Assembly (NCBI GenBank): GCA_002841865.1
Contig: PHBD01000007.1
Coordinates: 18,726 to 82,725, forward strand
Direction: 5' to 3'
DNA from: Deltaproteobacteria bacterium HGW-Deltaproteobacteria-19
GTDB lineage: Bacteria; Desulfobacterota; Syntrophia; Syntrophales; PHBD01
DNA: 64,000 bases
The notes under the pieces were generated by a model. That model saw nothing but the letters and a program-made list of their open reading frames with translations, did no database searches and was not told where the DNA came from. Shown in pieces: positions 1-44,964 of the stretch. The stretch's first letter is position 1, and each line of letters starts with the position of its first letter. Made by a program: the position numbers and the translations under genes.

Positions 1-1
1 T

Positions 2-79
2 ACAAATCATGAAGAATTTGTGAATGAATTGAAAAATGTAAAAGACAATATAAATAAGTATTTACCCCCAAATACATGA
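2..79 (+). CDS. 3' end of an unidentified ORF entering from the left window edge (partial)
   Basis: Frame 2 is open from the edge and reads TNHEEFVNELKNVKDNINKYLPPNT, then TGA at 77-79. It is AT-rich like its neighbours and too short to identify. Confidence 0.2.
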   Translation, partial: TNHEEFVNELKNVKDNINKYLPPNT

Positions 80-331
80 ATTAAGGGATGTGTCCCCATT
101 CTGTCCCCACTTTATTTTCTATCCGTAATTAACACGTAATATTAATAGGTTAAAAATCGCCTTATGCTTTCAATTCCCATGCACTTCCGCCATTTTATTC
201 ACAATATCCGCGAATTCGCGAAGGTTCAACTTTAACCGGTCTTTAACCTGATCTCTTTCCCACGATTGACGGTTTTCGTGCCCCATACCGGATTTGAATC
301 CCGGGTTTTGAAGAGGCGAGACACACATGCT

Positions 332-1093
332 TCAGAATTTGCCTTTGAATAACATGAACAATATCCAGATAATCAGGAGAGCACCAAGGCCCCAAATGAA
401 AAATCCTATTCCCCCCATCGGGTGTAAAATCATCGCTCGATAGTAATGTTTCTTGCACCAAGCACCCGTGAAGGGAACAGCCCCGGGAAAATGCAGTAAA
501 TGGCCGGGTTCTCCGCAAACATCGCATAAACCGCAGAATCCCCGCGGCACGCCTTGCTTTTCGAGAGTTACCGGACTTTTGTTCCACAGGTCACAATAGC
601 AGGGACCGTAAGGCCAGCCTTTCGCTTTGTACCGCACAATCAAGACTTGTCCATTAAAGAGATTTCGTCCGCACTCTTCCTCGATGATTCTCTGAACGTC
701 CTCTTCCGATCCCCCACCAGTGCCAGCACCAATCAGTGGCATTGCCAGAGATTGGAAGCCATGCTTCGTTGCCGCATCAAGGGCTGACGCGATAGACTTT
801 CGCACGGATGTTTCTGAGGAACACCAGCGGTGGTTAATTCCTGCAACGTGAATAATGGCCTTGTATGGAAGTTTGCCGGCAGAAGTAACCGCCGCTCCTC
901 CCAGAGGCAACACACCATAGCGGCGAAGCTCTCGAAAGGGTGCCAATCCGGCTTTACGCTTGATGGCTCCGGAAACGCCTTGTGGGAGAAGGAGCCACCA
1001 GGGGATGAGATTCCGGTTCCACGGATTGACGATGGCATCAACCTTCTGATCGAGTAAATCACCGTCAACGACCATTAGATTATCTTTATTCAT
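332..1093 (-). CDS. Macro-domain (ADP-ribose binding/hydrolase-like) protein fused to a Cys-rich segment and a C-terminal transmembrane helix
   Basis: 253-aa ORF. Macro motifs are AIVNPWNRNL...GVSGAIKRKAG and MPLIGAGTGGGS. The C-terminal part has CYC...CGLCDVC...WC cysteines followed by the hydrophobic GGIGFFIWGLGALLIIWILFMLF. The gene is AT-rich. Confidence 0.75.
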   Translation of the reverse strand: MNKDNLMVVDGDLLDQKVDAIVNPWNRNLIPWWLLLPQGVSGAIKRKAGLAPFRELRRYGVLPLGGAAVTSAGKLPYKAIIHVAGINHRWCSSETSVRKSIASALDAATKHGFQSLAMPLIGAGTGGGSEEDVQRIIEEECGRNLFNGQVLIVRYKAKGWPYGPCYCDLWNKSPVTLEKQGVPRGFCGLCDVCGEPGHLLHFPGAVPFTGAWCKKHYYRAMILHPMGGIGFFIWGLGALLIIWILFMLFKGKF

Positions 1094-1469
1094 AAGTGAT
1101 AACCTACCGTTAGCCTGACATGCTTCCTGGAAACAATTCAGTCTGGTGAGGGGAGGAAAAGTCGCTGATAAGACAAATAAATCCGGCAGATATTATGGGA
1201 AACCCTTCTATTGTCAATAGAAATACCCGGTTCGTCCTGGCGCAGTTGCCAAAGTGGTTTGAGGATTACGACGAGTGTCATCCCCACAAGGGCCCGGAGA
1301 TAACGTCTCCCGTGAATATCGGTGCCTTGCGGCTGAGTTGGGGGCATGTCCTGTAAATCAGGGGCAAATCCAGACATTGGCCGCGTTGACTTCAATAAAA
1401 CTGCCACAACCGAGAAAGACACATTGGAGGCAGATGTATTCGTGGCTGCAATTCTTCGATGTCACATCT

Positions 1470-1886
1470 CTATTTTTTTGGTTCTTTAACGATCATATTC
1501 AACAGTTTACAGGAGTCGAACACGAGTTCTCCAGCGGGCGCCAGTTGCAGGCGACCAATCTGCATTGCTTCTTGCTCTTGCCCCGCTTTGTAAGCAGCCA
1601 GACCGGATGCATGATCTTTAAAGTAAATTTTAATTGGATACTTTGCTTCCTTACTTTTAAACTCAAGAACTTTGTTTTTCTCGTCGTAATTATAGGTAAA
1701 TTTTTTCTTCTCAAGCGCTTTCATAACTTTATTCAAGGTAAGCCCTGTATCGTTGTATTGCTTGGAGTCCGGATCTCCAGAGCAGTACAATTTCGGTGAA
1801 GAATCAAAACAGCCCGTCAGCACGGCCAGAAAAAAAACAACACCTATTGTTGCCCAAACAAATCCTGATTTTCTACTCATTATCAT
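1470..1886 (-). CDS. Hypothetical lipoprotein
   Basis: The ORF-track ORF is 1470..1919. The start at 1886 (MIMSRKSG...) is preferred because GGAGGAA lies about 6 nt upstream. Signal peptide with lipobox AVLTGC. No recognisable family. Confidence 0.6.
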   Translation of the reverse strand: MIMSRKSGFVWATIGVVFFLAVLTGCFDSSPKLYCSGDPDSKQYNDTGLTLNKVMKALEKKKFTYNYDEKNKVLEFKSKEAKYPIKIYFKDHASGLAAYKAGQEQEAMQIGRLQLAPAGELVFDSCKLLNMIVKEPKK

Positions 1887-2144
1887 AAAAATTCCTCCAT
1901 TATGTTGACGATAAGGCATTACTTTTTAGAATTGGAAGTATATTAAGAAGGATTTTTTGTGTCAATTAAATTTCGGTCAAAATATTGGTTGCGATAGAAT
2001 AAAGGTGATCTTTACGAATTGAATTCTTGAAGATTTAGAGAAAGTCCGGCTTGTTTCTTTCAGGGAGAAGCTTTTTCTTTGACACGATCTATTACGTAAA
2101 GTGCCGTCTTGGGCAGAGGGTAAATACTCGACGGTAGTCAGGCG

Positions 2145-2603
2145 TTATTGCCAGCCGCCCTCGCAACTGCCGCACATCCTATCACAGATAGACTTCTTAT
2201 CCTGAAATGCGCTGTCCGGCACGATGATATTATTTCCGCAGCGCCAGTTATATCCCTTCACACCCGTCCAAGTGTACCCCGGAAGTGGCGAATATATGAT
2301 ATCGCAAGTGATTTCGAAGGGGGGAGTACCTCCCGCGGGACGGCATGAGATCGTACTCGGACCATCACTCGTGGAGTTATAGTCTACGGTGCAATCGGCT
2401 GTTTGATTGGGTATTGCTTCACATCGGTACGTTTCCGCATGAGAAAACAGCCATGATCCTGCGATGAAGCCGGTGATGAGAATTGAAATGAAGAGTTTCC
2501 GTGGCATCCCTAAGAGAGCCGGCAACTCGGCTTTGTCACTCTCTTTAACCGTTCCGCTCTGCTTCAGCCTCTCTTCAATCTTGTCAAGATGAGCTTGAAT
2601 CAT
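2145..2603 (-). CDS. Hypothetical membrane-anchored/exported cysteine-rich protein
   Basis: 152-aa ORF with AAGGTGGA upstream of the ATG at 2603. A hydrophobic stretch LFISILITGFIAGSWLF is followed by a ~95-aa region with about 10 Cys (CEA..DC..SC..TC..RC..IC..MCGSC). No family recognised. Confidence 0.55.
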   Translation of the reverse strand: MIQAHLDKIEERLKQSGTVKESDKAELPALLGMPRKLFISILITGFIAGSWLFSHAETYRCEAIPNQTADCTVDYNSTSDGPSTISCRPAGGTPPFEITCDIIYSPLPGYTWTGVKGYNWRCGNNIIVPDSAFQDKKSICDRMCGSCEGGWQ

Positions 2604-2956
2604 TTCTTTCCACCTTTATTCGCCTTCACTCCAAGTGTGCCCCGAAGCCCTCCGCCTCGGAGGTTCAAACATACGATGGGCATCCTTGTGTGTCAATGAG
2701 AAATCATTTATAAGTATATATCATTATAGGAGTTTGGGAACTTCGGTCTAACAAGGATAATCCTCTCCTCCTTCGCCGACCTACTGACCGGTTTGGGGGC
2801 AGATTTAAATCTTCCCCTTCTTATTTCGGGCGGTTTTAAACAGCCGGCCTTATTGATGTTTTGAGCATATCGCTGAAACAGCAATTGACAGGCGTTCATT
2901 TGTTTTACACAGTAAACTTGTAATGAAAGGCAAATCCACATGAGGGAGGGATAAAA

Positions 2957-3688
2957 ATGAAAAAGATCCTATGTGTTTTGGTCCTTTTCGGGGCAATAGG
3001 CTTTGCCTCCCCGGCCGAGGCCGGTATCCTTGACGATATCCTGAACAGGCTTCCCGAGGGGAAAAGCGGTGTATCTCAGACCGGTCCGGATCAGAAGACC
3101 ACCGTTTCCGGCTTGAAGGAGGCCCTTGCCATCGGCACGGAGAAGGCCGTGAAAGCCTTGTCCAAAAAGGACGGCTATTTCGGCGACGAAATGGTGAAGA
3201 TTCTTCTTCCCGAAAAGATCCGGAAGGCTGCCGATATGGTTGCCAAGCTCGGCTTTCAGAAACAGGTGGACCGTTTTACCCTCAGCATGAACCGTGCAGC
3301 CGAGGCGGCGGCGCCCAAGGCCACCGATCTTTTTGTGGACGCCATCAAGGCCATGTCGTTCGACGATGCCCGGAAGATTCTCCAGGGAGGCGACACGGCG
3401 GCAACGGACTTTTTCAAGGCCAAGACGTCGGACAAGCTCTACGGCGAGTTCAGGCCGGTGGTGGCCGCCAACATGAACAAAGTCGGAGTGACAAAGGCCT
3501 ACAAAGACATGATGGCTCCCTATGAAGCCCTCCCGCTTGTACCCAGGGAGTCGATCGATCTGGATCACTATGTGACCAACAAAGCCCTGGACGGCCTTTT
3601 TCTCATGATCGCGGGGGAAGAGAAGAAGATCCGGAACGATCCAGCCGCCCGGGTGACGGACATCCTGAAGACCGTCTTCGGGAAATAG
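2957..3688 (+). CDS. DUF4197-family exported protein
   Basis: GGGAGGG RBS and a signal peptide ending ASPAEA. Family-typical strings are [50 protein letters not shown] and [19 protein letters not shown]. Confidence 0.75.
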
Positions 3689-3777
3689 CAGCGTGCCCGA
3701 TGGAAGCTTCTCCATGTCCCTGAGGGCCGGCGCTTTTTGATAAAATTCCGGAGCAGAACATATTCACTGGAAGGCAC

Positions 3778-5385
3778 ATGATGAGAAAGGCGATCTTTGA
3801 GGTTGTCGGTCTGTATGTCCTGATTGCCGGGGCATGGGTCCTGCTTTCCGACCAGGCGCTGCTCTGGCTGGTGAAAGATCCCGATCTCTGCCTGTGGATG
3901 CAGACTTACAAGGGGTGGGGCTTCGTCCTTGTCACGGCCGTCCTTCTCTATCTGGTTTTGTTTGACCGCTTGAAGATGCTGGAACAGGCTCATGATGCCG
4001 GCAATCTAATCACGGAGCGCCTGCAGCACTATCTGTCCGCCAGTCCCGTCATCAGTTACGCCCTCCGAATCGAGAACAATCAGGCCTCGCCGATCTGGGT
4101 GAGTGAAAACATCACGGGGATACTGGGATATACCACGGAGGAGCTGCTGCAGCCGAGCTGGTGGGACGATCACCTCCATCCCGATGACCGGGAAGAGGCT
4201 CAGGCCAAGGTCTGGTCGTCATTCTTTGAAACGGGCACCCTGGATCACAAGTATCGCTTCCTCTGCAAGGATGGAACGGTGATCTGGATCCAGGATCAGA
4301 TCCGGCTTGTCCGCGATGAAGGCGGAACGCCCCGGGAAGCGATCGGGGTGTGGACAAACATCACCGAACTGAAGCAGACGGAAGAGAAGTTAAGGAAAAG
4401 GGAGAGTTTCATCCGGGCGGTCCTGGACAATCTTCCCATCGGCGTAGCCGTAAACTCCATCGATCCCCACGTCGTGTTCGGGTACATGAACGATCTCTTC
4501 CCCGAACTGTACCGGACGACCAAGGAGGCGCTCACAGATCCCGATGCATTCTGGAACGTCGTTTATGAAGATCCGGAGTTCAGGGAAAAGATGAAAAAGC
4601 AGGTCCTCGACGATTATGCCAGCGGAGATCCGGCACGGCTGTATTGGCCTGACGTCCCGATCACCCGCCGGGGGAGCGGGACCACCTACATCACCGCCAG
4701 GAACATCACCATACCCGGCGAAGGCCTGATGGTTTCAACGGTATGGGACGTCACCGAGCGCAAGCGGCTGGAACTGGAACGACAGGTCATCATCGATAAA
4801 CTGAGAAAGGGCCTGACAGCAACCGTGCAGGCCATTTCTGCCGTCGTCGAGGCAAAAGATCCCTACACGGCCGGTCACCAGCAGAGAGTCTCCGACCTGG
4901 CGCGGACCATCGCCTGTGAAATGGGGCTTCCGGGTGATCAAATCGAAGGAATTCGCGTGGCCGGCATTATCCATGACATCGGCAAGATCTCCGTTCCCTC
5001 GGAAATACTCAGCAAGCCATCGAAACTGTCTCTCGTTGAATTCAGGCTGATCCAGGTTCATCCCGAGGCCGGTTACGAAATTCTCAAGGACGTCGAGTTC
5101 CCCTGGCCCGTGGCCCGGGCCGTTCTCCAGCATCATGAACGGATGGACGGCTCCGGCTATCCGAGCGGATTAAAGGGCGGGGACATCCTCCTGGAGGCCC
5201 GGATCCTGGCCGTGGCGGACGTCGTGGAATCGATGGCCTCCCATCGGCCCTACCGCCCGACCCTGGGCATAGAGGCCGCATTGGAGGAGATCATGAAAAA
5301 CAAAGGAATCCTTTACGATCCTGATGTTGTGGATGCCTGCTTGAAGCTTTTTCGGGAGAAGGAATATCAGCTTCCTTCTGAATAA
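3778..5385 (+). CDS. Membrane-anchored PAS/PAS HD-GYP protein (probable c-di-GMP phosphodiesterase)
   Basis: Two N-terminal TM helices. Two PAS-PAC modules end at TNITELKQTEE and WDVTERKRLE. HD-GYP core: IIHDIGK ... HHERMDGSGYP. Confidence 0.85.
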   Translation: MMRKAIFEVVGLYVLIAGAWVLLSDQALLWLVKDPDLCLWMQTYKGWGFVLVTAVLLYLVLFDRLKMLEQAHDAGNLITERLQHYLSASPVISYALRIENNQASPIWVSENITGILGYTTEELLQPSWWDDHLHPDDREEAQAKVWSSFFETGTLDHKYRFLCKDGTVIWIQDQIRLVRDEGGTPREAIGVWTNITELKQTEEKLRKRESFIRAVLDNLPIGVAVNSIDPHVVFGYMNDLFPELYRTTKEALTDPDAFWNVVYEDPEFREKMKKQVLDDYASGDPARLYWPDVPITRRGSGTTYITARNITIPGEGLMVSTVWDVTERKRLELERQVIIDKLRKGLTATVQAISAVVEAKDPYTAGHQQRVSDLARTIACEMGLPGDQIEGIRVAGIIHDIGKISVPSEILSKPSKLSLVEFRLIQVHPEAGYEILKDVEFPWPVARAVLQHHERMDGSGYPSGLKGGDILLEARILAVADVVESMASHRPYRPTLGIEAALEEIMKNKGILYDPDVVDACLKLFREKEYQLPSE

Positions 5386-13766: not shown

Positions 13767-14216
13767 GCATCTGCCTCCCGTTTCCTGAATTGGTTTTCCT
13801 GCCTGCCCCTCGGTCTTCATCTCCCATCCCGACGCCTCCCGTTCCGGCCCCAGTGGAGGTTCCACAACCGGGAAAGGATCGTCGGGATCGTCCGGCGGGC
13901 GCACAGGGATTCTCCTGCGGATGGACCCCGGCCGCAAGCCGGCCGGGCCGGCACCGGCATCCCCGCACCCCGAAGCCCGGGATCCGGAATCGGCCGTCAT
14001 GAATGATATGAAGGAGACGCTGCCGCGTCGTTATGAGTGTAGGAGGCTATCCGTCCGTCCGGGACCGTGGGAATCGCCCCCGAAGTGATGCGGACATCAC
14101 GCACAGAAAGGAAATCATCCCCTCGGATCGATTCGAAACGTCCTTTTCCAGCCCCGTCGGCCGGCTGTTCGAATCGAATTCCCAGGGGATCGATCAAGGG
14201 AACTCGGGGAAAGAAC

Positions 14217-14232
14217 AGCCAGATTCGTGCCA
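14217..14232 (-). promoter_or_regulatory. Weak sigma54-like -24/-12 element facing the MaoC operon
   Basis: The minus strand reads TGGCACGAATCTGGCT, with correct GG-N10-GC spacing but TGGCT instead of TTGCW. It lies about 450 nt upstream of the 13766 start, so it is only tentative. Confidence 0.25.
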
Positions 14233-14527
14233 CCTTCGGGAGGGCAATGGCCTCCCCTTCCCTCGAGACATTAAATTGCTGCACCAATACGCATACATGA
14301 GAATTTCGGAGCGGGGAGTCCCCTCTTTCCGAACCGGGGTCCCGAAGCCGTCTGATGGATGATTTTCAATCACGGCCATGGCAACACCTATCCCAAACCG
14401 GTCAGCAAACACGTGGAACACGATAATATCACTAATTAATATTGGCTGGCTGAAACCGGACCACGGTTCGGATGAGAATCATCCTGTGGCAGACATCAGG
14501 ATAAATTCGTCATTGACAAAAATTATT

Positions 14528-14543
14528 TGGCATTCACATAGCA
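14528..14543 (+). promoter_or_regulatory. Sigma54-like -24/-12 element upstream of the ThiF-like gene
   Basis: The plus strand reads TGGCATTCACATAGCA (GG-N10-GC spacing, -12 is TAGCA), about 70 nt upstream of ATG 14613, inside an AT-rich intergenic patch. Confidence 0.3.
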
Positions 14544-14612
14544 TTGCAATTCTTGATCATCCATTGCCTGTGTGGCAGGATGCCCTGGCGGCGAACGAAA
14601 AGGAGAGGATTC

Positions 14613-15407
14613 ATGCAAAGTTTTCTTGATCGCACCCTTCCGATATTGGGGAAGGAAGGAATTGAAACGCTTTCCACCCCACGGATCGCCTTTGCGGGCC
14701 TCGGCGGAGTCGGCGGCGGCGCTTTTCTGAATCTCGTTCGCTGCGGGGTGAAACGTTTCCGGCTGGCTGAAAACGGCGTTTTCGATCCTCCCGATATGAA
14801 CCGCCAGGCAGCCGCATTCGCCTCGACCATGGGCAAAACCAAGATTGAAGTTTACGAACAGCTTGCCCGCGAGATCAACCCGGATGTCGAACTGGAGCTG
14901 TTTCCCGAGGGAATCCTGGCGGCCAATATCGAGCGGTTTCTCGACGGCAGCGATGTCTATGTGGGTGTGATCGATTTCGAAAAGGGAGCGGACGTCAAGG
15001 CCATGGCTCCGGAATTTCTCAAGCGGTTCAACATTCCGCTGTTTACCGCAGGTGCCTTTGGATTCGGCGCCCTGCTGGTCGCCCACCATCCCCGGGGAAT
15101 GATGCCTGATGAATTCTGGGGGCTTTTGATGAAAAAGTCCACCGGGAAAGGAATTTTTCCATCTTTCGTTTCCGACCGGTTCGAGCGCACCGCCATGGAA
15201 CGGATCGACCGTGCCGCCAAAACGGGCAAGCTCGCCACGACAAGCATCGGCGGCGCCCTGTCAGGGGCTCTGCTTGCATCGGAAGTGCTGGCCTATCTCC
15301 TTCGCAGGACCGGTCTTGTGAACCGCGATATTGTCTTCGCACCCAGGTTCGCTATGATCGATCTTTTCCGGGCGGCCATGGAAGTTGTGGATGTTACGGC
15401 GGATTGA
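14613..15407 (+). CDS. ThiF/E1-like adenylyltransferase family protein (no zinc or rhodanese modules)
   Basis: ATG 14613 is preceded by AAGGAGAGG. Rossmann loop IAFAGLGGVGGGAF and E1-type DPPDMNRQ are present. 264 aa, with no CxxC pairs. Confidence 0.75.
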   Translation: MQSFLDRTLPILGKEGIETLSTPRIAFAGLGGVGGGAFLNLVRCGVKRFRLAENGVFDPPDMNRQAAAFASTMGKTKIEVYEQLAREINPDVELELFPEGILAANIERFLDGSDVYVGVIDFEKGADVKAMAPEFLKRFNIPLFTAGAFGFGALLVAHHPRGMMPDEFWGLLMKKSTGKGIFPSFVSDRFERTAMERIDRAAKTGKLATTSIGGALSGALLASEVLAYLLRRTGLVNRDIVFAPRFAMIDLFRAAMEVVDVTAD

Positions 15408-15514
15408 AACGACAAACGGACTTGCGGACAATCGGACCGGATACGGATCGCCTGGCCGGATCGGAACCGGAACGACGGCCCGCTGAAAAAGGCAAATCGA
15501 TCAAGGAGAAGCAC

Positions 15515-16978
15515 ATGAGCGAACTGAAATACCCGGCCCTCCAATACCGCTGGCATCTCCGGGATACCGAAGACGGAGCGCGGCTGGTCTATTACGGCCT
15601 TCGTAACCCACCCAACCATACACGAAACATCATCCCCCTGCCGCGTGAACTGGCCGATCGTTTATCACTGCTGAACGGCAAAACCGCCGGCGCCGATTTG
15701 CCGTCCGACCTCAAGCGCCATGAAATCTACGCCCGGCTGGTTGCGGAAGGGATCATCGTGGAGGCGGCGACGGTCCGTCAACCTTCCACCAGAGACCGCC
15801 ATCGGCAGTGCGTGCGCTGCGTCAACAACGACTATCTCCTGCCCGGTCTGGAATTCGATGAAAACGGCCTGTGCGCCTTTTGCCAGTGCTACGAGCGGGC
15901 AAAAGAGTCCGGAGCGGATTCCCTGGCGCAGGAGGGCACAACGGACGAGGATCTCCTTCGGATTGCCTCTCAAAACACCGGCTCCCGCTTCGACGTCATG
16001 GTCTTGTATACCGGAGGAAAGGACTCTACGTTCCTGCTCTGGTATCTCGCCAAAAAACTCGGGCTCCGGGTGCTTGTCGCCTCATGGAACATGCCCTACA
16101 CCAATGAAACGTGCAGGGAGAACGCCCGCCGGGCCATGCGCCTGCTTCCGGACGTGGAATTCGTGGAGCGCACCCTGCCCTGGAACATGGTCCGCCAGGC
16201 CATGCGCAGCCAATTCGAGCATACCGGCCTCCCCTGCCTTTGCCCGATGGCGGCTCATGCGCTCTTTTATCCTCTTGCGACACAGGAAAACATTCCCCTG
16301 ATCATGCACGGGGTTGAAGAAGTGCAGCTGTCGGTCATGAACTATGTGATGAGCGAAATCAAGTCGGGGCAACCCCGGAAAGAACAAACCCCCGATCATC
16401 GTGCCAACACATTGAACTTTTTGCGGACGATCACGACAACCGCGGAGACCCTGCAGCCTTATTCCCTGAATGCCGAAATCCTGCGATTGATGGCTACCGT
16501 CAAAAAGCGCCTGTCCTCCGTTTTCGTTCCCCTGGAAGACATCCTGGCCCGGGCGGAGAACGATCCGGACATGCCCATTCCCACATTGCGCAGGCTGCAG
16601 ACCAACGTCACCTATGGCTCTTGGAGCGACGTTGTCGAGGTTATAAAGAGGGAAATGGACTGGCAGATGCCGCCGGGACAAAAGGGGCTTCTGCACACCA
16701 GTTGCCGGATTGAAAAGGTGAAGGACTACTGCCAGTTCAAACGCTTTCAGGCCGCACGAACCACCCTTTTCCCCCAGTCCGTGGTCGAAGTCAGTGCGGG
16801 CGTTTATTTCGGGCTTGTTTCCCGGGAGGAGGCACTGCAGGAGCTGCAGGAGTTGGGCTATTACCGGGAGCCCGATCCCCTGGCGCCGCTGCTGGACGAT
16901 CTGGGCATCGATCGGAACCGGACGCAGGAAATGGGTGAAATTCCCTGGGTCCTGGGCGAATGCGCCGAATGCCGATGA
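15515..16978 (+). CDS. Zinc-ribbon PP-loop ATP pyrophosphatase of the N-acetyl-sugar amidotransferase (WbuX/PseA-like) type with an extra ~95-aa N-terminal domain
   Basis: ATG 15515 follows AAGGAG. Zinc ribbon CVRC...PGLEFDENGLCAFC (aa 99-123). PP-loop FDVMVLYTGGKDST (aa 159-172). C-terminal HTSCRIEKVKDYCQFKRF...LVSREEAL is typical of this family. The N-terminal 95 aa are not part of the family core. Confidence 0.7.
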   Translation: MSELKYPALQYRWHLRDTEDGARLVYYGLRNPPNHTRNIIPLPRELADRLSLLNGKTAGADLPSDLKRHEIYARLVAEGIIVEAATVRQPSTRDRHRQCVRCVNNDYLLPGLEFDENGLCAFCQCYERAKESGADSLAQEGTTDEDLLRIASQNTGSRFDVMVLYTGGKDSTFLLWYLAKKLGLRVLVASWNMPYTNETCRENARRAMRLLPDVEFVERTLPWNMVRQAMRSQFEHTGLPCLCPMAAHALFYPLATQENIPLIMHGVEEVQLSVMNYVMSEIKSGQPRKEQTPDHRANTLNFLRTITTTAETLQPYSLNAEILRLMATVKKRLSSVFVPLEDILARAENDPDMPIPTLRRLQTNVTYGSWSDVVEVIKREMDWQMPPGQKGLLHTSCRIEKVKDYCQFKRFQAARTTLFPQSVVEVSAGVYFGLVSREEALQELQELGYYREPDPLAPLLDDLGIDRNRTQEMGEIPWVLGECAECR

Positions 16979-18252: not shown

Positions 18253-18977
18253 GACTGAAATTCGCCGTCGTGATCCTTCTGCAGATCCTGCTCCTGATCG
18301 GAATCATCGGCTACCGGGCATACTGGGTTGCGACCGGGGAGCATATCCTCCTGCAGTCGGCCCCCGTCGACCCGCGGGACCTTTTCCGCGGCGACTATGT
18401 GACGCTCGCCTATGACCTGTCGACCATCGACCTCGACCGGGCGGGGATCCGCGGGGACATCCGGCGCAATGACCGGATTTACACCGTTCTGCAAAAGGCG
18501 GGGGATGGAACGTACCGCATGGCGTCTGTCGGCAATACCGTCCCGGTGGGCGGGAAGTTCCTCCAGGGGCGCGTGACCCGCGTGAACGAAAGAGCCACCC
18601 GTTTTGAAGTCACGATCCGGGAGGACGGGGCCGGTGACCGCACCTTCGAGCCGCGCTGGTTTTCGTTCCATGAAGGGGAGCGTGTGATTCTGTGCCTGGA
18701 CCGCGGCGGCCGGGTGCAGGCGTCCCTCCGCGAAAAGGAGGACGCCCGGTGCCGCTCGGGGGAAGCCGTGGCCGGGACGGTGACGGCTGTGAAGAAAATC
18801 TCCTTCCGCCAGGCCGCCGTCGAATACGGCATCGAGCACTTCTTCCTGGAGGAGGGCAAGGGAAAGGCCATGGAAAGGGCCCGCAACGCCCGGGATCTTC
18901 GGGTGGAGGTGGCCCTCCGGGAAGACGGACGGGGACTGATCACGGGCCTGTTCCTCGACGGCCGGCGGATTCCCTAA
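18249..18977 (+). CDS. GDYXXLXY domain protein
   Basis: The GTG at 18249 overlaps the upstream stop (GTGA). An N-terminal TM helix is followed by the literal RGDYVTLAY motif. A second conserved part reads EYGIEHFFLEEGKG. Confidence 0.7.
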   Translation: MRLKFAVVILLQILLLIGIIGYRAYWVATGEHILLQSAPVDPRDLFRGDYVTLAYDLSTIDLDRAGIRGDIRRNDRIYTVLQKAGDGTYRMASVGNTVPVGGKFLQGRVTRVNERATRFEVTIREDGAGDRTFEPRWFSFHEGERVILCLDRGGRVQASLREKEDARCRSGEAVAGTVTAVKKISFRQAAVEYGIEHFFLEEGKGKAMERARNARDLRVEVALREDGRGLITGLFLDGRRIP

Positions 18978-21900
18978 ACCCGGGACGGAGGCCCCTGTTG
19001 CCGCCCGGCGAAGCCCTTGTCCGGTTCCAGCGCCGTCTGCACCGCCCGGGCAAGCGCCTGAAGCGATACGGGCTTCATCACAAAAACCCGGATCCCCAGT
19101 TTTTTCGATTCTTCCTCGGTGATCCTCTCGCTGAAACCGGTGGTCAGGATGATCGGGAGGTCTGGACGGATCTTCAGCATCTCCTGAGCCAGATGGTCGC
19201 CGGTCATGTTCGGCATCGTCATGTCCGTGATCACCAGATCGAAACGGGCCGGGTTCATGCGGAACGCCTCCAGGGCATCCCGGCTGCTCAGCCTTACCGA
19301 TACGTCATACCCGAGGGAGGAAAGCATCTCCTGCCCCAGGGCGGCAAGGGGCTCCTCGTCATCGACCAGGAGAATGCGTCCCTTCCCCTTGGGCGGCGGT
19401 TCGGCATCCCGTCCGGCGCCCGGCTCGTCGGCCTCGATGAGCGGCAGGGAGATCGTGAAGACGGACCCCTTCCCGGGCTCGCTCTCCACGGAGATGGATC
19501 CTCCGTGGTCCTTCACGATGCCGTACACCACGGACAGCCCGAGCCCCGTCCCCTCCCCGGGGACCTTGGTCGTGAAAAACGGATCGAAAATCCTGTTCCG
19601 GACGGAGGCGTCGATCCCCCGGCCCGTGTCGCTGACCGTCAGCATCACGTACGGCCCCTCCTTGAGTTCCGAGTCATAGAACGGATCGTAGACCGTAATC
19701 TCCTTCTGGCTGAGGTTCACCGTCAGAATCCCTTCGCCGTCCCTCATCGCATGGATCGCATTGGTGCAGAGGTTCATGACAACCTGATGAATCTGGGTGG
19801 GGTCCGCGAGAACGATGTCCCGATCGACATTGTAGGCCTGCCGGATCTCGACAGTGGAGGGGCAGGACGACCTCAGCAGCTTCATGGCCTCCTTCACGAT
19901 GGGCGTCACCGTGACGGGCTTTTTTTCCTGCTCCCGCTGGCGGCTGAAGGTGAGGATCTGATTGACCAGGTCCCGGGAGCGGTTGCAGGCCTTCAGGACC
20001 TGGTCCAGGTAGGAGTGGATCTGCGGATCGGCGGCCTTCAGCCGGGCCAGCTCCGTGTACCCCATCATGGCTCCGAGGATGTTGTTGAAATCGTGGGCGA
20101 TGCCGCCGGCTAGCGTACCGATGGCCTCCATTTTCTGGGCCTGGCGGAGCTTGGATTCCAGCTTGACCTCTTCGGTGATGTCCCGCTTCAGAGAGATGAA
20201 TCCGGTGATGCGCCCCGATGAGCTGACGATGGGGCTGATGGTCGCGTCTTCCTGGATGAGCATTCCCTTCTTGTGCCGGTTCGTGATCCGTCCCGTCCAG
20301 ATGCTTCCCCGTTTGATCGTGCCCCAGAGCCGCTCGTAAAAGGCCCTGTCGTGGACGCCGCTCTTGACAAGCCGCGGAGTCCGGCCGATCGCCTCCTGCC
20401 TCGAGTAACCGGTGATCTTCTCGAAGGCCGGGTTGACATACTCGATCACTCCCTCGGGATCCGTGATGATGATCTCCTCCGCGGCCTGCTCGAGGGCCAG
20501 GCTCAGCCGCTGCAGCACCTCCTCGTTGCGCTTGCGCTCCGTCACGTCGCGGATGATGGCCTGAACCAGCTTTTTGCCCTGGAGATCGACGGCATGCAGG
20601 TTGATCTCCGCTTCCAGAACGGAACCATCGCGGCGGACGTGCTGCCATTCATAGAACTGGGGGGTTCCCTCCTGTGCAGCCTTGATCCGTTCTCTCGCGA
20701 CCTCCTCGGACAGCCGGCCGTTCGGCTGGTATAAAGGGGACGCGATGGAGAACGGCTGTCCCATGACCCGCTCCTTCGACTCGATGCCGAACATCTCAAC
20801 GGCCTTCCGGTTACAGTCGATGAAATGCTCCTCGTCCCAGAGAACGATGGCGTCGTTGGCCGACTCGAACAGGACCCGGAACTTCTCCTCGCTGTCTTTC
20901 AGATTCTGCTCGGCGTTTTTCCGTTCCGTGATGTCCAGGAGTGTTCCGATGACGGCGGGCTTCCCCCGGTATGTCGTCCGGGAGCTGTACACCTCGGTGT
21001 GCCTCATTTCCCCGTTTTTTCTCACGACCCTGAAATCGTAGCGGAGGGATTTCAACTCCCCGGAGAGGCGTTTCTCGATCATGCCTTTCACCAAGGGCCG
21101 ATCCCCGGGATGAACGATATCTTCGAACCGCAGCCTGCCCGCGACCTCCCCGGCTTCGTATCCGAAGATGCGGGCGAATTCCGTGTTGGCGTACTGGAAC
21201 ACGTCGTCCTGGATGAGGTAGATGCCGACGATGGACTTCTCGGCAAGGTCCCGGAACTTGCTCTCCGACTCCTGCAGGGCCTCATCCATCCGCTTGCGGC
21301 CGTCGATGTCCGTGTGGGTTCCGATCGCCCGGAGCGGCCTGCCGTCGGGGTTCCGGGACATGACCCGGCCCCGGTCGAGGATCCACTTGTACGAGCCGTC
21401 CCGGCAGCGAAGGCGGTACTCGCAGGTGTAAACCGGTGTCTCGCCCCGGAAGTGCCGCTCCAGCTCCTCATGGGGCCGCGCCCGGTCGTCCGGGTGAAGC
21501 AGCGTTTCCCATTCGTCAAGCGAATCGCCGATCTCATCCTCTCCGAACCCCAGCATGGCCTTCCACTGCCTGGAGAAGAAGACTCGATTCGTCTCGATGT
21601 TCCAGTCCCAGAGGCCGTCGCCCGCCCCCTCGAGGGCGAACTGCCACCGCTCCTCGCTCTCCTGCAGCAGCCGCTGCGAGCGGCGGATCTCGCTGAAGTC
21701 AATGGCGACGCCCCGGATGCCCTGGATGATCCCGTCCTTTTGAATGAAGGATGATGAAACGAACAGGGGGAACTCCTCCCCGTTTTTCCGGACGGCCGTG
21801 TACTCCGACCGTGTCTGGTTCAGTTCGCCTTTCATCGCCCGGGTGACGTTTTCGGAGACCCGCGCGTGGTCCGCCGCTGAGATGATCTTCAGGAAATGGA

Positions 21901-22900
21901 TCCCCCCGGCGAAATCCTTTTCGGTGTAGCCGAACAGGGAGAACCCGAAGCGGTTCATGTAGGTGAAGATGCCCCGTTCGTTCATCTCGAAGATCACCTG
22001 GGGCAGCAGCTCCGCCAGGTCCCGGAATCGGGCCTCGCTCTGCCTCAGCTCGTCCTCCATGCGCCGCCTTTCCGTGACGTCCCGGGCCGTGATCACCATG
22101 CCCTGAATGCCCGGCGACTCGCTCATGTTGCTGCCGACGGCGGCCAGCCAGATCCAGGATCTGTCGGCCTTCCGGATCCGGAACTCCGTGGGAACACCCG
22201 TATTCTCCCTGCGGATCACCTCGGTAAACTCGTTGAAGACCGTCTCCAGGTCTTCCTCATGGATCAGCGGAAAGGGGCTGCCGCCGATGAAATGGCCGGG
22301 TGGATACCCGAGGATCCGGGCCGTCGAGGGCGATTCGAACAATACGTTTCCCCGGGCATCCAGGACGATGATGATGTCCGACACACTGTCCATCACCCTG
22401 TTGAACTGATCCCTGCTCTCGCGAAGGGCATTCTCGATCCGCTTCCGTTCCGTGATGTCCCGGATAAAGGCCAGGGAGGCGTTCTTTCCTTCAAACGTGA
22501 TGTCCATCGCGGACACTTCGCCGCACATCGCGGATCCGTCGGGCATGTTCAGGCGCACTTCATAGATGGAGGGAGCAGCCTTCCCTTCCTGCCGGAGACG
22601 ATGGTATTCCATCACCCGGGGTCGGTCCTCTTCATGGATGAAAGCGCCGAATGACATGTTCCGGAGTTCCTGCCGGTTTCCTCCAAAGAGCTCCAGGAAT
22701 CGGTCGTTGACGTAGGCATATTTCCCATCCTGGGCAATCAGCGTGATGTCATTCGCCTTATCGAGGGCCGTCCGATAAATGCATGAATGCTCCGCATGCG
22801 TTCCCGTTCCGGACAGTTTCTTTTCCAGCTCGGCGAGCCGGCTTTCCTTTTCCTCCAGTTCCCGGAGAAGCTGTTCCTTCGTTTTCTGCCTCGCATTCAT
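18974..22900 (-). CDS. Multi-PAS hybrid sensor histidine kinase with C-terminal receiver
   Basis: 1308 aa. Seven PAS-PAC ends can be counted (DITERKR, DVTERRR, DFSEIRR, TDIDGRKR, LDITERKN, RDVTERKR, RDITEEVK). H-box HDFNNILGAMMGY, HATPase G-boxes DTGRGI and GTGLGLS, and REC RILLVDDE...LVITDMTMP follow. Confidence 0.92.
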   Translation of the reverse strand: MNARQKTKEQLLRELEEKESRLAELEKKLSGTGTHAEHSCIYRTALDKANDITLIAQDGKYAYVNDRFLELFGGNRQELRNMSFGAFIHEEDRPRVMEYHRLRQEGKAAPSIYEVRLNMPDGSAMCGEVSAMDITFEGKNASLAFIRDITERKRIENALRESRDQFNRVMDSVSDIIIVLDARGNVLFESPSTARILGYPPGHFIGGSPFPLIHEEDLETVFNEFTEVIRRENTGVPTEFRIRKADRSWIWLAAVGSNMSESPGIQGMVITARDVTERRRMEDELRQSEARFRDLAELLPQVIFEMNERGIFTYMNRFGFSLFGYTEKDFAGGIHFLKIISAADHARVSENVTRAMKGELNQTRSEYTAVRKNGEEFPLFVSSSFIQKDGIIQGIRGVAIDFSEIRRSQRLLQESEERWQFALEGAGDGLWDWNIETNRVFFSRQWKAMLGFGEDEIGDSLDEWETLLHPDDRARPHEELERHFRGETPVYTCEYRLRCRDGSYKWILDRGRVMSRNPDGRPLRAIGTHTDIDGRKRMDEALQESESKFRDLAEKSIVGIYLIQDDVFQYANTEFARIFGYEAGEVAGRLRFEDIVHPGDRPLVKGMIEKRLSGELKSLRYDFRVVRKNGEMRHTEVYSSRTTYRGKPAVIGTLLDITERKNAEQNLKDSEEKFRVLFESANDAIVLWDEEHFIDCNRKAVEMFGIESKERVMGQPFSIASPLYQPNGRLSEEVARERIKAAQEGTPQFYEWQHVRRDGSVLEAEINLHAVDLQGKKLVQAIIRDVTERKRNEEVLQRLSLALEQAAEEIIITDPEGVIEYVNPAFEKITGYSRQEAIGRTPRLVKSGVHDRAFYERLWGTIKRGSIWTGRITNRHKKGMLIQEDATISPIVSSSGRITGFISLKRDITEEVKLESKLRQAQKMEAIGTLAGGIAHDFNNILGAMMGYTELARLKAADPQIHSYLDQVLKACNRSRDLVNQILTFSRQREQEKKPVTVTPIVKEAMKLLRSSCPSTVEIRQAYNVDRDIVLADPTQIHQVVMNLCTNAIHAMRDGEGILTVNLSQKEITVYDPFYDSELKEGPYVMLTVSDTGRGIDASVRNRIFDPFFTTKVPGEGTGLGLSVVYGIVKDHGGSISVESEPGKGSVFTISLPLIEADEPGAGRDAEPPPKGKGRILLVDDEEPLAALGQEMLSSLGYDVSVRLSSRDALEAFRMNPARFDLVITDMTMPNMTGDHLAQEMLKIRPDLPIILTTGFSERITEEESKKLGIRVFVMKPVSLQALARAVQTALEPDKGFAGRQQGPPSRV

Positions 22901-39731: not shown

Positions 39732-42700
39732 ATGAGATTCGTGTCTGATGGACCATCAATCCCCGACGATCTTCTTGTTGCACGAGATGAAGGTCAAGTT
39801 GTCTTTATTTGTGGGGCCGGAGTATCTCAAGCACGCGCCAATCTACCCAATTTTTCTCAATTGACGCGGCATGTTATTGAAAGACTTGGAGCTACGTCTG
39901 AAGATCCGGCACGAAGACTTCTTGAAGAAGCAGAGAGACTGGATAAGATCGCGGGAGTCACTGGCGTTATTCCATACGACAGAATATTTGGACTTCTGGA
40001 AAGAGACTTTTCCATACAAGAGATTGAACAAGAAGCTGCTAAGGCTCTTAAGCCAGCTGAGAATCCCGATCTTTCCGCCCACCGGATCATACTGGATTTG
40101 GCAAAGATGCCAGATGGACGAGTCAGAATTGTTACGACAAACTTTGATCTTCTTTTCGAAGCCTGTGATTCTACATTACCGTGTTGCCGTCCCCCTCGCT
40201 TACCGGACCCCATGCGTGATGATGAATTTGAAGGAATCATTCATCTGCATGGCCGTGTAGACAGTAAATATCAAAATGCTGATGGTGACGGTTTTGTTCT
40301 CTCCAGTGCAGGTTTTGGACGTGCTTATCTCGCTGAAGGATGGGCAACTTCTTTTATCCGACCTATCATAGATCAATATATTGTCGTCTTTGTAGGATAC
40401 GCGGCGGATGATCCTCCTGTTTATTACCTACTGGAGGCACTGAACAGCTATAAAAAATCTTTGGCAGGTGTATATGCCTTTCAGGCCGGCAATGCGGGAG
40501 ATGCAGAAGCCAAGTGGAGGCATAAAGGTGTATGTCCCATCGCATATGATGAAGCGGACAACCATAAGGCCCTTTGGGATACGTTCGCAGGATGGGCAGA
40601 AAGGGCAAAAGACCCGAATGCCTGGCTCGAGAAAATCATTACCCTGTCGCAGGAAGGTCCTGAAGCACTGACACCGCATGAAAGAGGTCAGGTCGCGCAT
40701 ATTGTTTCCACACATGAAGGTGCCAGAAGGTTCGCCAACGCAGATGTTCCCCCTCCTGCCGAATGGCTATGCGTTTTTGATCCGGTCATCCGTTATATGA
40801 CTCCAGTCAATATCAATATTTATTCCGAGGATAAGCATCCATTTGATCCATTTTATGATGCATATGGGTTGGACAACGATACACCGCCACCGAGAGTTGA
40901 TCCGAGGGACTACTTTGCCAAAAGGGACTTACCCTTCGGTGAATGGGATGCCTTTTCACTCAACAAGTCAGATATCAAGAACCTTCAGGATGATCGCTAT
41001 GCAGCACTGCGGGGACACTGGGCAATCAATGTACCCCGATTATCATCGCGTTTGGAGCATTTGTGTGTATGGATCAGTAAAGTATGTCATCAACCGGCTG
41101 CCGCATGGTGGGCTGCCGGGCAAAAGGGCGTACATCATTCTCTTAAACATCTAATCCATTCTCAACTAGTGGACTCAAATGTAAACTCGTTCCCTTCAGA
41201 GGTTTATAAAGCCTGGAGGTTGATCCTTGAGGTATGGAGGAATCGAGAAAGGGATGCCGATTTGGATTGGCATGATTTGAAAAAGTCTATCAATCGTGAT
41301 GGCTGGAAAAATGAAACGATCAAAGAGTTTGCTTCTATCAGGAGGCCTTATCTCTCATTTGGTAACATGCCTCGGAAGAGCGGAAGCAAACCACCCTCAA
41401 TGAGAGAGGAGATTCAGTATAGAGAGTTGGTCAGTGTGGAAGTAAAATATCCTACGCCTTATCGTGATGCAGATATTCCTGATGACTTTCTCTTGTCCGT
41501 TGTCCAAGAGTTCCGAAAAAATTTAGAGCACGCAATCTATCTTGAACAGGACAGAGGTGGATATGGGTTACATCACCTTTCACCGATTGAACCGGATAAA
41601 AGTGTCAATGGCGATTCATATGAAAGAACACACGGTATATCAAGCATTCTGCTCTATTACGTCAAACTTTTCAAAAGACTCGTTGAAAGTGACCCACAAG
41701 TTGCCAAACAGGAATGTTTGGCATGGCGGCAGGATGAAGAAACGGTTTTTGATCTTTTGAGGATCTGGATCGCCGGTGACCCGCGTATATTCAGCGGAAA
41801 GGATGCGGGCGAATTGCTCATGCGGCTGAGTATGCAGTCGTTTTGGGAGCGCCGTCATCAGCGGGATTTGCTACTCGTGTTGGAAAAACGATGGAACGAT
41901 TTTCCAAAGGCAACGAGAATGCGCCTCGAACGTCGGATTTTGCAGGGGCCACCACCTTGTGAATTGGAAGAAAGGAAACGGTATGTCGATAGACGGGCAT
42001 GGACAATATTAAATCTGATTCATTGGTTGGCAGAACATGGATTACAATTCAGTTTTGATCTACGAAAGAAAAGCGAAAAACTGCGCAAGCAAGCACCCGA
42101 GTGGCAGCCTGAATATGCTGCAAAGGCAGCCAACTCCCTGGAAGGACGAGGCGGATTTATTAAGAGGAAAACAGAACATTCTTCACTTCTTGCCGAGCCT
42201 CCGGAATTGATTCTTCAAAAGGCGAAAGAACTCAGTGGCAGTGATTACGAAAGATTAACGGAGAATGATCCCTTCGCGGGTCTGTCGGCCGAAAGGGCGG
42301 ACCTCGCCCTTGCCGCGCTTGCTAGTAACGCGGATCGCAATGATTATCCGGAATGGGCATGGCGAACGTTCCTTTACGCAGATGCACGCAAGAATGATTC
42401 TGCAGATTTTTCGGCGCAGATAGGAAACCATATATTAGAAATGTCGGATGATGTCGTTTGTGGCATCATTTCACCTGTTTCTGATTGGTTTTTAAATGCC
42501 AGCAAGGGTCTTTTAGCTGCGCTGCAGGAGCGATTCTGGCAGATATGGGAACGGTTAATTGCAATCTTGAAATCTAAACCACAAAGTGCACCCTCAAACA
42601 TCTTAAGGCAGAAAGATGAACCTGATTTTGCCATGGAGGGTCTGAATGCGCCTGTTGGTAAGCTTGCACAAGCCTTGATGAATGATCCGGCAATAGCTAA

Positions 42701-43704: not shown

Positions 43705-44589
43705 TCAGGGATCATCGCCCGCTGTTCCATCAAAACGAAACTCCTCGAAACGGCCGTTCTCCAGGTCGATGTGCGCCATGACATGCCGGAATATCCTCCC
43801 GCGGCGCAGGAGGATTTTGAGCACCTCCATGGCCTGGAGGGTGCCGACGGCGGCGGCGGTCACCGCCGGAACGCCCAGAAGGTCCTCCGGCCGCTCCGCG
43901 TCGGCTTCCGTCGCCGTCGGTGAATCATAAAGCCGCTCCAGGCCGGGATCTCCCGGATAAACCGTCATGACCCGGCCCTCAAAACCCGCCAGCGCGCCGT
44001 GCACCAGGGGAACCCCCAGCCGTCGGGCCGCCTCCTGCAGAACCAGCCGGTCCGGAGCATTGTCCAGAGCATCAACGATAACATCGGCACCGGCCAGCAG
44101 CGAATCCGCGTTTGAGGCGATGATTCTCGACTGGTGCGGGACGACCCGGACCCCGGGATTGACAGAGGCCACGGTCTCCGCGGCGGCCACCGCCTTCGAT
44201 TTCTGCAGTGTCTCCCGGCTGCACAGGGCCTGACGGTTCAGGTTCGTCTCGTCGAACCGGTCGCAATCGACGACCACCAGCCGGCCGACGCCGATCCGCG
44301 CCAGGAGCAGGATCACCTGCCCGCCCAGCCCGCCCGCTCCGGCGACGGCAACCTGCGACTCGGCAATCTTCAATTGCTCCGCCGGAGTGATGATGTCCAG
44401 GTTGCGGATATAGCGGTTGGGATAAACGCCGATCCCCAGCGCCTCCCTGTATATCTCGTGCAGGTCCGTGCCGCACAGGCCGGCGATCTCCAGGGCGGCC
44501 CTGTCTTCCAGGATGGAAATTTCTCGCCCCGCCGGGTCGGTGATTCGTGCAGCCTTTTCCCGTAGCTGCCGATGGATGTCCGACGTCAT
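43705..44589 (-). CDS. HesA/MoeB/ThiF-family E1-like adenylyltransferase with ~90-aa N-terminal extension
   Basis: ATG 44589 lies 8 nt after AGGAG. VAVAGAGGLGGQV and DCDRFDETNLNRQ are present. There are no CxxC zinc pairs. Confidence 0.8.
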   Translation of the reverse strand: MTSDIHRQLREKAARITDPAGREISILEDRAALEIAGLCGTDLHEIYREALGIGVYPNRYIRNLDIITPAEQLKIAESQVAVAGAGGLGGQVILLLARIGVGRLVVVDCDRFDETNLNRQALCSRETLQKSKAVAAAETVASVNPGVRVVPHQSRIIASNADSLLAGADVIVDALDNAPDRLVLQEAARRLGVPLVHGALAGFEGRVMTVYPGDPGLERLYDSPTATEADAERPEDLLGVPAVTAAAVGTLQAMEVLKILLRRGRIFRHVMAHIDLENGRFEEFRFDGTAGDDP

Positions 44590-44721
44590 CGGAAGCACTC
44601 CTGTTCCATTTCACAGTCCCTCGTCACCCGCCACCCCGGGGGGAAAACCTGCTGGGAGAAAAACGACAAAAGGGTGTATAAAACAAGGGTGGATTTCGCA
44701 GGGAGGGAGGGATATCCGGAC

Positions 44722-44964
44722 ATGAAAATCGAGCTGAACCTGTACGCATCCCTGGCCCGCTACCTCCCCCGGGATGCAGGAGCGCCCGGCAACAGAATCC
44801 GGGAGGTGAGTGAGGGAACCACCATCCTCGAACTCCTCCATGATCTCCAGGTCCCCATGGACAAAGTCAAGCTCATCTTTGTGAACGGGCTTCACGCCCG
44901 CAGCGATGAAATCCTGCGTGAGGGCGACAGGGTGGGCGTTTTCCCGCCGGTGGCGGGAGGGTGA
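44722..44964 (+). CDS. MoaD/ThiS-family ubiquitin-like (beta-grasp) sulfur-carrier protein
   Basis: 80 aa with GGGAGGGAGGG upstream. It ends ...LREGDRVGVFPPVAGG, a C-terminal Gly-Gly. Confidence 0.8.
   Translation: MKIELNLYASLARYLPRDAGAPGNRIREVSEGTTILELLHDLQVPMDKVKLIFVNGLHARSDEILREGDRVGVFPPVAGG

Follow-up and report, generated by a model that had tools for sequence, protein, structure and literature searches.

In a 64,000-nucleotide stretch of contig PHBD01000007.1 from Deltaproteobacteria bacterium HGW-Deltaproteobacteria-19 (hereafter the window), two adjacent genes encode a ThiF-family adenylyltransferase and a protein that joins an N-terminal domain to a zinc ribbon and a PP-loop ATP pyrophosphatase of the N-acetyl sugar amidotransferase (NASAT) lineage. 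The N-terminal domain resembles the recognition elements (RREs) of the pathways for peptides that are made on ribosomes and modified after translation (RiPPs). The reading that we favor, tentatively and a little short of an even chance, is that the pair forms the conserved core of an ATP-dependent tailoring system for a peptide-like or N-acyl-amino-acid metabolite, or for a peptide encoded elsewhere; with the same reserve, the substrate would not be a nucleotide sugar. The ThiF-family gene (14613-15407, + strand) begins at the ATG at 14613 behind the ribosome-binding site AAAGGAGAGG and encodes 264 aa, and the PP-loop gene (15515-16978, + strand) begins at the ATG at 15515 behind AAGGAGA and encodes 487 aa. 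The two lie on the same strand with 107 bp between them and no terminator-like site in the gap.

Architecture and relatives of the PP-loop protein

The PP-loop protein was placed in the NASAT lineage from the TIGR03573 profile, an AlphaFold2 model and Foldseek. The search with TIGR03573 (WbuX), a check that the original prediction had proposed, returned the only family match, over residues 98-449 (E = 2.5e-30), at 106.1 bits against a curated cutoff of 203.2; no Pfam family matched. The whole-protein model (pLDDT 89.9, pTM 0.89) has the Legionella NASAT 8WEX as its best Foldseek match in the PDB (E = 6.5e-11, TM 0.55, 15% identity), followed by the Fe-S sulfurtransferases TtuA and NcsA and then by the thioamide-forming YcfA, LarE, and asparagine and NAD synthetases. 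By hidden Markov model (HMM) and by fold the protein is nearest to NASAT, yet it lies outside the curated cutoff of that family. With the NASATs WbuX, WbpG and PseA it has in common a Cys4 ribbon followed by a PP-loop Rossmann domain and, presumably, the ATP-dependent activation of an amide carbonyl; it differs from them in an extra N-terminal domain of ∼96 aa and in a helical insertion. The Cys4 zinc ribbon (C99-x2-C102-x17-C120-x2-C123, read as CVRC-x17-CAFC at 15809-15883, + strand) is invariant in 81 of 81 family sequences and is the equivalent of the Zn-binding tetracysteine of LpNASAT (PMC10607449). The PP-loop YTGGKDS (16007-16027, + strand), at which ATP would be cleaved to AMP and PPi, keeps T166, G167, G168, K169 and D170 in all 81 sequences and S171 in 80. 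Both motifs are present where the original prediction had placed them.

Ahead of the ribbon, some 95 extra residues had been likened to a PqqD-type peptide-recognition element, with the suggestion that their fold be checked. A domain model and Foldseek assign residues 1-96 (15515-15802, + strand) to a winged-helix domain with an RRE/PqqD-like fold. Modeled alone (pLDDT 83.4), the domain has strands at residues 13-18, 21-26, and 39-42 and helices at 44-50, 64-68, and 70-77, giving the three-stranded sheet and three helices of a winged helix as in solved RREs. Its Foldseek matches are headed by the PbtF RRE 8T19 (E = 0.012, probability 0.98), SuiB, ThcOx, TbiB1, the lasso B1 protein 6jx3, and the MccB clamp. 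The confident model and the RRE-dominated match list together support, though weakly, an RRE-like winged-helix fold, and in this respect the earlier claim stands. A sequence search of the PDB with the domain gave no hit, and the Pfam model PaaA-like_N matched it weakly (E = 0.07, 3 of 30 members). Across the 81 sequences Q10, W13, and G28 are invariant, and R12 (80/81), Y26 (79/81), and R30 (77/81) are nearly so. The domain is kept in every family member, down to the 30%-identical Firmicutes homologues, and is absent from canonical NASATs and from 81 NASAT-like cluster representatives, all of which start at the ribbon.

A second, predicted metal site is made up of C241-x-C243 (16235-16243, + strand; C241 in 81/81, C243 in 80/81) and H394-T-S-C397 (16694-16705, + strand; C397 in 81/81, H394 in 80/81). 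The spacing of this Cys triad to the PP-loop resembles that of the [4Fe-4S] cysteines of TtuA and CtaC; in CtaC the ligands are C154, C157, and C284, following the PP-loop residues D77 and S78. Because the spacing is TtuA/CtaC-like and H394 is present, the site could hold either an Fe-S cluster or a Cys3His zinc ion. An oxygen-sensitive Fe-S cluster is the probable occupant, and the invariant triad, host groups taken as anaerobes, and a ferredoxin-type partner in Firmicutes all fit an Fe-S enzyme. The site extends beyond the window family: 77 of the 81 NASAT-like representatives keep CxxC or CxC together with (H/R)-x-x-C at equivalent positions, as does one NASAT flanked by hisH and hisF. Across these 77 proteins the site may have been overlooked, whether it holds an Fe-S cluster or a further zinc ion: the only NASAT structure paper, on an aerobic crystal structure of LpNASAT, reports the Cys4 zinc site alone (PMC10607449).

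The Fe-S enzymes with an adenine nucleotide alpha-hydrolase (AANH) fold that insert sulfur, TtuA, TtcA, NcsA, and CtaC, offer a close comparison, with a Zn site, a PP-loop, and three similarly spaced, conserved Cys. CtaC, the thioamide synthetase of closthioamide, acts on a peptide-like, carrier-tethered amide; we compared it by its published description. CtaC homologues are reported to come mostly from anaerobes, as which we also class the hosts of the present family, and to lie next to nonribosomal peptide synthetase (NRPS) genes (PMC6772006), as do the N-domain-less relatives described below. The window protein differs from this group in giving no match to Pfam ATP_bind_3, in having CxC rather than CxxC, and in that the searches turned up neither a sulfur carrier nor a peptidyl carrier protein. 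We note that the C-terminal ∼20 residues of the PP-loop protein (GEIPWVLGECAECR; 16916-16978) are modeled with low confidence and are Cys-rich in many Desulfobacterota-type members and missing in Firmicutes-type members; the tail could serve as a flexible Cys arm, for example as a persulfide carrier or a metal-binding tail.

A protein database search with the PP-loop protein gave 629 relatives, and the 120 matches listed are all without a functional name. Among these listed matches, the top relatives are full-length and 45-95% identical and belong to Syntrophales, Syntrophorhabdaceae, Desulfovibrionales, and Desulfobulbales. When one genome per species was scanned, further members appeared in Phycisphaerae, Verrucomicrobiota, Lentisphaerae, Elusimicrobia, and one methanogen metagenome-assembled genome (Methanospirillum), together with homologues of ∼30% identity in Christensenellales, Oscillospiraceae, Acholeplasmataceae, and Bacilli. 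We take all host groups of the N-domain-bearing family to be anaerobes. An HMMER search of 1.84 billion representatives, clustered at 50% identity, returned 36 hits at E = 1e-30, 238 at 1e-10, and 1760 at 1e-3, and the tier next below 1e-30 consists of proteins of 330-440 aa that begin at the zinc ribbon; the N-domain-bearing form is accordingly a compact clade. It is also strongly conserved, and our literature search found no publication on the combination of an RRE-like domain with a NASAT-type PP-loop enzyme, nor anything on the family itself.

The relatives that lack the N-domain show what else this lineage does. Plasmid-borne genes annotated as NASAT, without the N-domain, have hisH, hisF, and acylneuraminate cytidylyltransferase genes as their flanking neighbors. 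Another N-domain-less subclade has the TGGKDS, CxC, and HTSC motifs; one of its members (P0288) lies directly after a polyketide synthase (PKS)-NRPS line and another (P0296) in a small-molecule cluster. NASAT-like domains are also inserted in NRPS adenylation domains, between AMP-binding and AMP-binding_C, a junction that is the classic site for in-cis tailoring domains, and a Streptomyces plasmid carries one in fusion with a condensation-domain protein. The NRPS/PKS-associated NASAT-like cases include P0352, P0329, P0367, P0371, P0357, L093 (7001-8122), and L091 (5938-8118). A literature search for interrupted adenylation domains with AANH found nothing. These insertions suggest a previously unrecognized in-cis amide-tailoring domain of NRPSs, and the PKS-NRPS adjacency, the adenylation-domain insertions, and the condensation-domain fusion together argue that the lineage has been repeatedly recruited for peptide-like, carrier-bound substrates. 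The N-domain-bearing family would add a third context, and the three together suggest that the NASAT-type lineage serves as a general amide-tailoring toolkit for sugars, thiotemplated peptides, and RRE-guided substrates.

The ThiF partner and the recurring neighbors

The ThiF-family protein matches Pfam ThiF (E = 4.7e-24). As had been described from the sequence, its 264 aa include GLGGVGGG and DMNRQ and no zinc CxxC pairs. The best NCBIfam model is the uncharacterized PRK08223, at 152 bits below a cutoff of 266, and the ThiF, MoeB, UbaA, and TcdA models all score far under their own cutoffs. An alignment of 69 orthologues shows G29-G35, D58, D61, N63, R64, Q65, K77, and D121 to be invariant and contains neither a conserved Cys nor a CxxC pair; the single Cys of the window protein is not conserved. 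Compared with the E1 enzymes of sulfur carriers, the protein retains the Rossmann GxGxxG, the Arg/Asn/Gln ATP motif, and the catalytic Asp and lacks the CxxC zinc pairs and the catalytic Cys. Judged by these residues it is a competent adenylyltransferase, and its lack of a zinc site and of a catalytic Cys weakens the analogy with TtuC/TtuA. By sequence the nearest solved structure is TcdA (CsdL), the tRNA t6A dehydratase (E = 6.6e-10, residues 8-150). TcdA and other Cys-less ThiF proteins such as HcgE share with it a length of ∼265 aa and the absence of zinc CxxC pairs and a catalytic Cys, and TcdA, as a carboxylate-cyclizing ThiF, offers a likeness in the adenylation of a non-protein carboxylate. 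The differences are that the match covers only part of the protein at a modest E value, that the best HMM is PRK08223, and that the genomic context is metabolic rather than tRNA-related.

For the neighbor counts, the open reading frames (ORFs) of 81 loci were clustered, and the counts were limited to those loci that extend 3 kb or more to either side of the PP-loop gene. A ThiF gene lies within 3 kb of the PP-loop gene at 23 of 28 Desulfobacterota-type loci and at 0 of 20 Firmicutes-type loci. The same distance also takes in a GNAT-like acyltransferase that frequently carries a fused RsbW-like HATPase_c_2 domain (17/28), a related 435-aa protein designated c12 (9/28), a HisC-like aminotransferase (8/28), a carboxyltransferase (6/28), and a FadD-like CoA ligase of the AMP-ligase type (5/28), each of them found at 0 of 20 Firmicutes-type loci. 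A flavodoxin-like/2x[4Fe-4S] protein shows the opposite distribution (0/28 and 20/20). This Firmicutes-type partner (L056-L084) has ∼237 aa, is EFR1-ferrodoxin-like but under the family cutoff, and is at times convergently oriented. The gene order in Desulfovibrionaceae is c12, HisC, PP-loop, ThiF, and GNAT; in Desulfobulbales this set is joined by a Mo enzyme of the xanthine-dehydrogenase type and a major facilitator superfamily (MFS) transporter. Another recurring order, seen in Phycisphaerae, Verrucomicrobiota, and Desulfofustis among others, is PaaK-like ligase, MFS, ThiF, PP-loop, HATPase-GNAT, and carboxyltransferase, in some cases with a CoA ligase and a further MFS gene, and one locus (L042) is a single-strand operon of MFS, AMP-ligase, GNAT, ThiF, carboxyltransferase, and PP-loop. 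MFS transporters thus recur in the clusters of related genomes. Against the PDB, the GNAT-like partners of 327 aa and 435 aa gave only an RsbW-like N-terminal match. The repeated presence of GNAT, CoA-ligase, carboxyltransferase, and MFS neighbors favors a small-molecule or peptide-like metabolite over a classical RiPP. As a side observation, STAS anti-anti-sigma proteins, SpoIIE/PP2C proteins with dCache/HAMP, and small HATPase_c_2 kinases occur near the GNAT(RsbW-like) clusters of four loci (L020, L032, L034, and L045), which hints that a partner-switching module may regulate the acyltransferase.

The window and its closest relatives have the ThiF/PP-loop core alone. Upstream are β-oxidation genes (a MaoC dehydratase, an acyl-CoA ligase, an enoyl-CoA hydratase, and acyl-CoA dehydrogenases) and downstream DUF2157 and GDYXXLXY genes, the flanks that the original prediction had described. 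Between the β-oxidation genes and the pair, a 612-bp noncoding leader (14001-14612, no strand assigned, GC 0.52) contains no convincing ORF and has no Rfam match, and a sigma-70-like promoter match lies within it at 14533-14560. Rfam gave nothing relevant at the gathering threshold in the window and seven related loci, nor at E ≤ 5 in 13900-15600.

An ordinary NASAT displaced to a site beside an unrelated ThiF gene is the explanation to which TIGR03573 as the sole family hit and NASAT as the best structural match would point. The score below the curated cutoff and the extra conserved N-domain argue against it, as does ThiF adjacency in 82% of clade loci, which holds for either order of the genes and for two ThiF subtypes. 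True NASATs also have hisH and hisF as ammonia suppliers and a sugar-nucleotide context, in place of which the window family has ThiF and GNAT or flavodoxin-ferredoxin partners: tblastn found no homologue of hisH, hisF, or cytidylyltransferase in the window or in any of 84 related loci, and no sugar gene at those loci. On this genomic context we ruled the displaced sugar enzyme out, and we regard it as extremely improbable. The earlier statement that the 64 kb hold no sugar gene is borne out for these three genes; for the remainder it is partly verified, not every ORF having been annotated. Taken together, the N-terminal extension has an RRE-like fold, the two genes are co-conserved, and the orthologues sit outside polysaccharide clusters, so none of the three outcomes that the original prediction had named as speaking against it was observed.

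A further explanation makes the pair an RNA-modification system, in which a TcdA-like ThiF and a TilS-like PP-loop enzyme act on a tRNA base and the winged helix binds RNA. TcdA as the nearest solved ThiF structure would suit such a system, as would a PP-loop gene that is highly conserved and often stands alone among unrelated neighbors. PP-loop enzymes that convert a carbonyl to an amidine on tRNA are known, TilS being one, and the PP-loop enzyme lysidine synthase has tRNA(CAU) as its substrate. Five related Oscillospiraceae loci have a tRNA gene with a CAT anticodon on the strand of the PP-loop gene and upstream of it, close by at 70-230 bp in four (L067, 9237-9313; L078, 9625-9701; L079, 9780-9856; L080, 9793-9869) and ∼2 kb away in L065 (7891-7967). 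This adjacency is probably a single lineage event, and the recurrent neighbors are metabolic, not translation-related. The ThiF protein, moreover, fits PRK08223 far better than TcdA, and the family is narrow, at 36 cluster representatives with E ≤ 1e-30. We consider an RNA substrate very unlikely.

Proposed chemistry and the search for a substrate

In the favored reading, a tailoring core for a peptide-like or N-acyl-amino-acid metabolite, the PP-loop enzyme would O-adenylate an amide or acyl carbonyl and exchange the oxygen for nitrogen, giving an amidine as in NASAT, or for sulfur, giving a thioamide as in CtaC and TtuA. The RRE-like N-domain may be the dock for a partner protein or for an extended, peptide-like portion of the substrate. 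ThiF would adenylate a carboxylate of the same substrate, and the adenylate might be captured by an intramolecular nucleophile, leading to cyclization as in TcdA, PaaA, and MccB, or else to amidation. From their context, the GNAT, HisC-like aminotransferase, CoA ligases, and carboxyltransferase of related genomes may build the substrate and the MFS transporter move it. One order of events, speculative though chemically consistent, would begin with the formation of an N-acyl amino acid by the GNAT; the PP-loop enzyme would turn its amide into an amidine or thioamide, and ThiF would drive the closure of a five-membered heterocycle. For sulfate reducers, syntrophs, methanogens, and gut Firmicutes, identifying the substrate could reveal a new amidine or thioamide metabolite or a new modification of proteins. 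The broader idea of carboxylate activation, amidation, or thiolation put forward in the original prediction gains from the co-conservation of ThiF with the PP-loop enzyme; it loses in that neither a precursor nor a carrier was found and ThiF is not universal.

A number of findings weigh against the favored reading. ThiF is missing within 3 kb, and also within 10 kb, at five of the 28 well-flanked loci: L007, L028, and L029 (Syntrophorhabdus or close relatives), L036 (Methanospirillum), and L050 (Bacillota). A further Syntrophorhabdus locus (L009) has none within 10 kb upstream, its contig ending right after the PP-loop gene, and all Firmicutes-type loci are without ThiF within 10 kb. Some ThiF orthologues stand alone; in Methanoregula one lies beside c12-like, aminotransferase, and GNAT genes with no PP-loop gene. 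The GNAT, aminotransferase, and carboxyltransferase partner genes are absent from the 64-kb window, and the Rfam searches gave no riboswitch or leader RNA beside the pair in the window or the seven related loci. The likeness of the N-domain to RREs is weak: no Foldseek match reaches E ≤ 1e-3, the best having a TM of ∼0.5, the winged-helix domains of NO66-type oxygenases score about as well as RREs, and no RRE or PqqD HMM in Pfam or NCBIfam matches. The conserved residues Q10, R12, W13, Y26, R30, and N31 fall in the first strands, outside the canonical β3/α3 peptide groove, so that they may belong to a structural or active-site element. The Cys triad, being common to NASAT-like proteins, would not discriminate between nitrogen and sulfur chemistry. 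Finally, the searches for a small partner were negative. When ORFs of at least 40 aa, and those of 12-75 aa, from 81-84 loci were clustered all against all, no conserved ORF emerged near the genes, the clusters being only shadow ORFs, tRNA-derived pseudo-ORFs, and lineage-local genes; a search for GG-ending ORFs and phmmer with the ThiS-family protein of the window found no ThiS-like or GG-ending ORF near the PP-loop gene in 84 loci; and in the larger operons, the search for a carrier protein or other small partners gave shadow ORFs only.

The first of these searches bears on a true RiPP pathway, in which the RRE-like domain would bind the leader of a very short, divergent, or distant precursor and the PP-loop and ThiF enzymes would modify its backbone and C-terminus, as do MccB or a lasso cyclase with its RRE. 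ThiF enzymes and RREs recur in RiPP pathways, as two reviews describe (PMC12596934, PMC12250964), and this recurrence is consistent with such a pathway, as are the fold of the N-domain, its weak PaaA-like_N match, and the MFS exporters of several related clusters. The family shares with MccB, PaaA, Ocin-ThiF-like/PbtF proteins, and the lasso cyclase with its B1 RRE both an RRE-like winged helix and ATP-dependent activation of a carbonyl or carboxyl group, as well as a ThiF-family partner, and the MFS and GNAT genes of some clusters recall mccC and mccE. It differs in that the RRE-like domain is on the PP-loop enzyme and not on ThiF, and in that the PP-loop enzyme is of the NASAT type and not the AsnB type. 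No precursor peptide was found in 84 loci, and inspection by hand of the Firmicutes upstream gaps, only 2-90 bp in many loci, gave none. The motifs of the N-domain stay the same from phylum to phylum, in contrast to those RREs that co-vary with leader peptides, and the PP-loop gene is often alone. A RiPP pathway, which the original prediction had already seen as weakened by the lack of a convincing precursor ORF, seems to us rather unlikely.

With similarly low probability, the RRE-like domain might recognize a conserved peptide or protein tail encoded elsewhere, on which an Fe-S PP-loop enzyme would install a backbone thioamide or amidine with the assistance of ThiF in Desulfobacterota or of the flavodoxin-ferredoxin protein in Firmicutes. 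If this were true, the family would be a new class of backbone post-translational modification machinery, unrelated to YcaO/TfuA.

The ThiS search bears on a relay like that of TtuC, TtuB, and TtuA, in which ThiF would activate a distant ThiS/MoaD carrier and the Fe-S PP-loop enzyme would thiolate its substrate by way of the thiocarboxylate. The folds that rank directly behind NASAT, those of TtuA, NcsA, and other sulfurtransferases, are in keeping with a relay, as are the invariant Cys triad at TtuA/CtaC-like spacing and hosts taken as anaerobes. The window does encode a ThiS-family protein of 80 aa that ends in VAGG (44722-44964, + strand), and hence a ubiquitin-like sulfur carrier, but one with its own E1: it is divergent from a second ThiF-family E1 (43705-44598, - strand; 297 aa, Pfam E = 1.9e-53), an aldehyde:ferredoxin-oxidoreductase-like gene (45668-47446) adjoins both, and these genes lie ∼27 kb from the ThiF/PP-loop pair. 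The ThiF protein of the pair has neither the two CxxC zinc pairs nor a conserved Cys, no locus of the 84 has a ubiquitin-like partner beside it, and the Firmicutes-type homologues are without any E1. The Cys triad, for its part, occurs also in a NASAT flanked by the ammonia-supplying hisH and hisF. Of the thiolation analogy drawn in the original prediction, the PP-loop half retains a TtuA/CtaC-like Cys triad, and the E1 half is undercut by the missing zinc site and Cys; we judge the relay unlikely.

Other features of the window

A defense role was also considered and rejected: PADLOC gives the ThiF protein generic E1-domain hits alone and the PP-loop, GNAT, and c12 proteins none. Elsewhere in the window, a SIR2-domain protein of 1273 aa (39732-43553, + strand) matches the PADLOC Dsr1 defense model (E = 2.9e-99). 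Its gene sits in a low-GC island (GC 0.47 against ∼0.62 in the surroundings) that was probably acquired horizontally. Just past the DUF2157/GDYXXLXY genes, a 1308-aa ORF (18974-22900, - strand) appears by eye to encode a hybrid histidine kinase that is rich in PAS domains and has a receiver domain. A second low-GC stretch occupies positions 1-4000 of the window (GC 0.45-0.52) and includes a 253-aa ORF (332-1093, - strand) with a weak DarG-like PADLOC hit (E = 1.3e-5).

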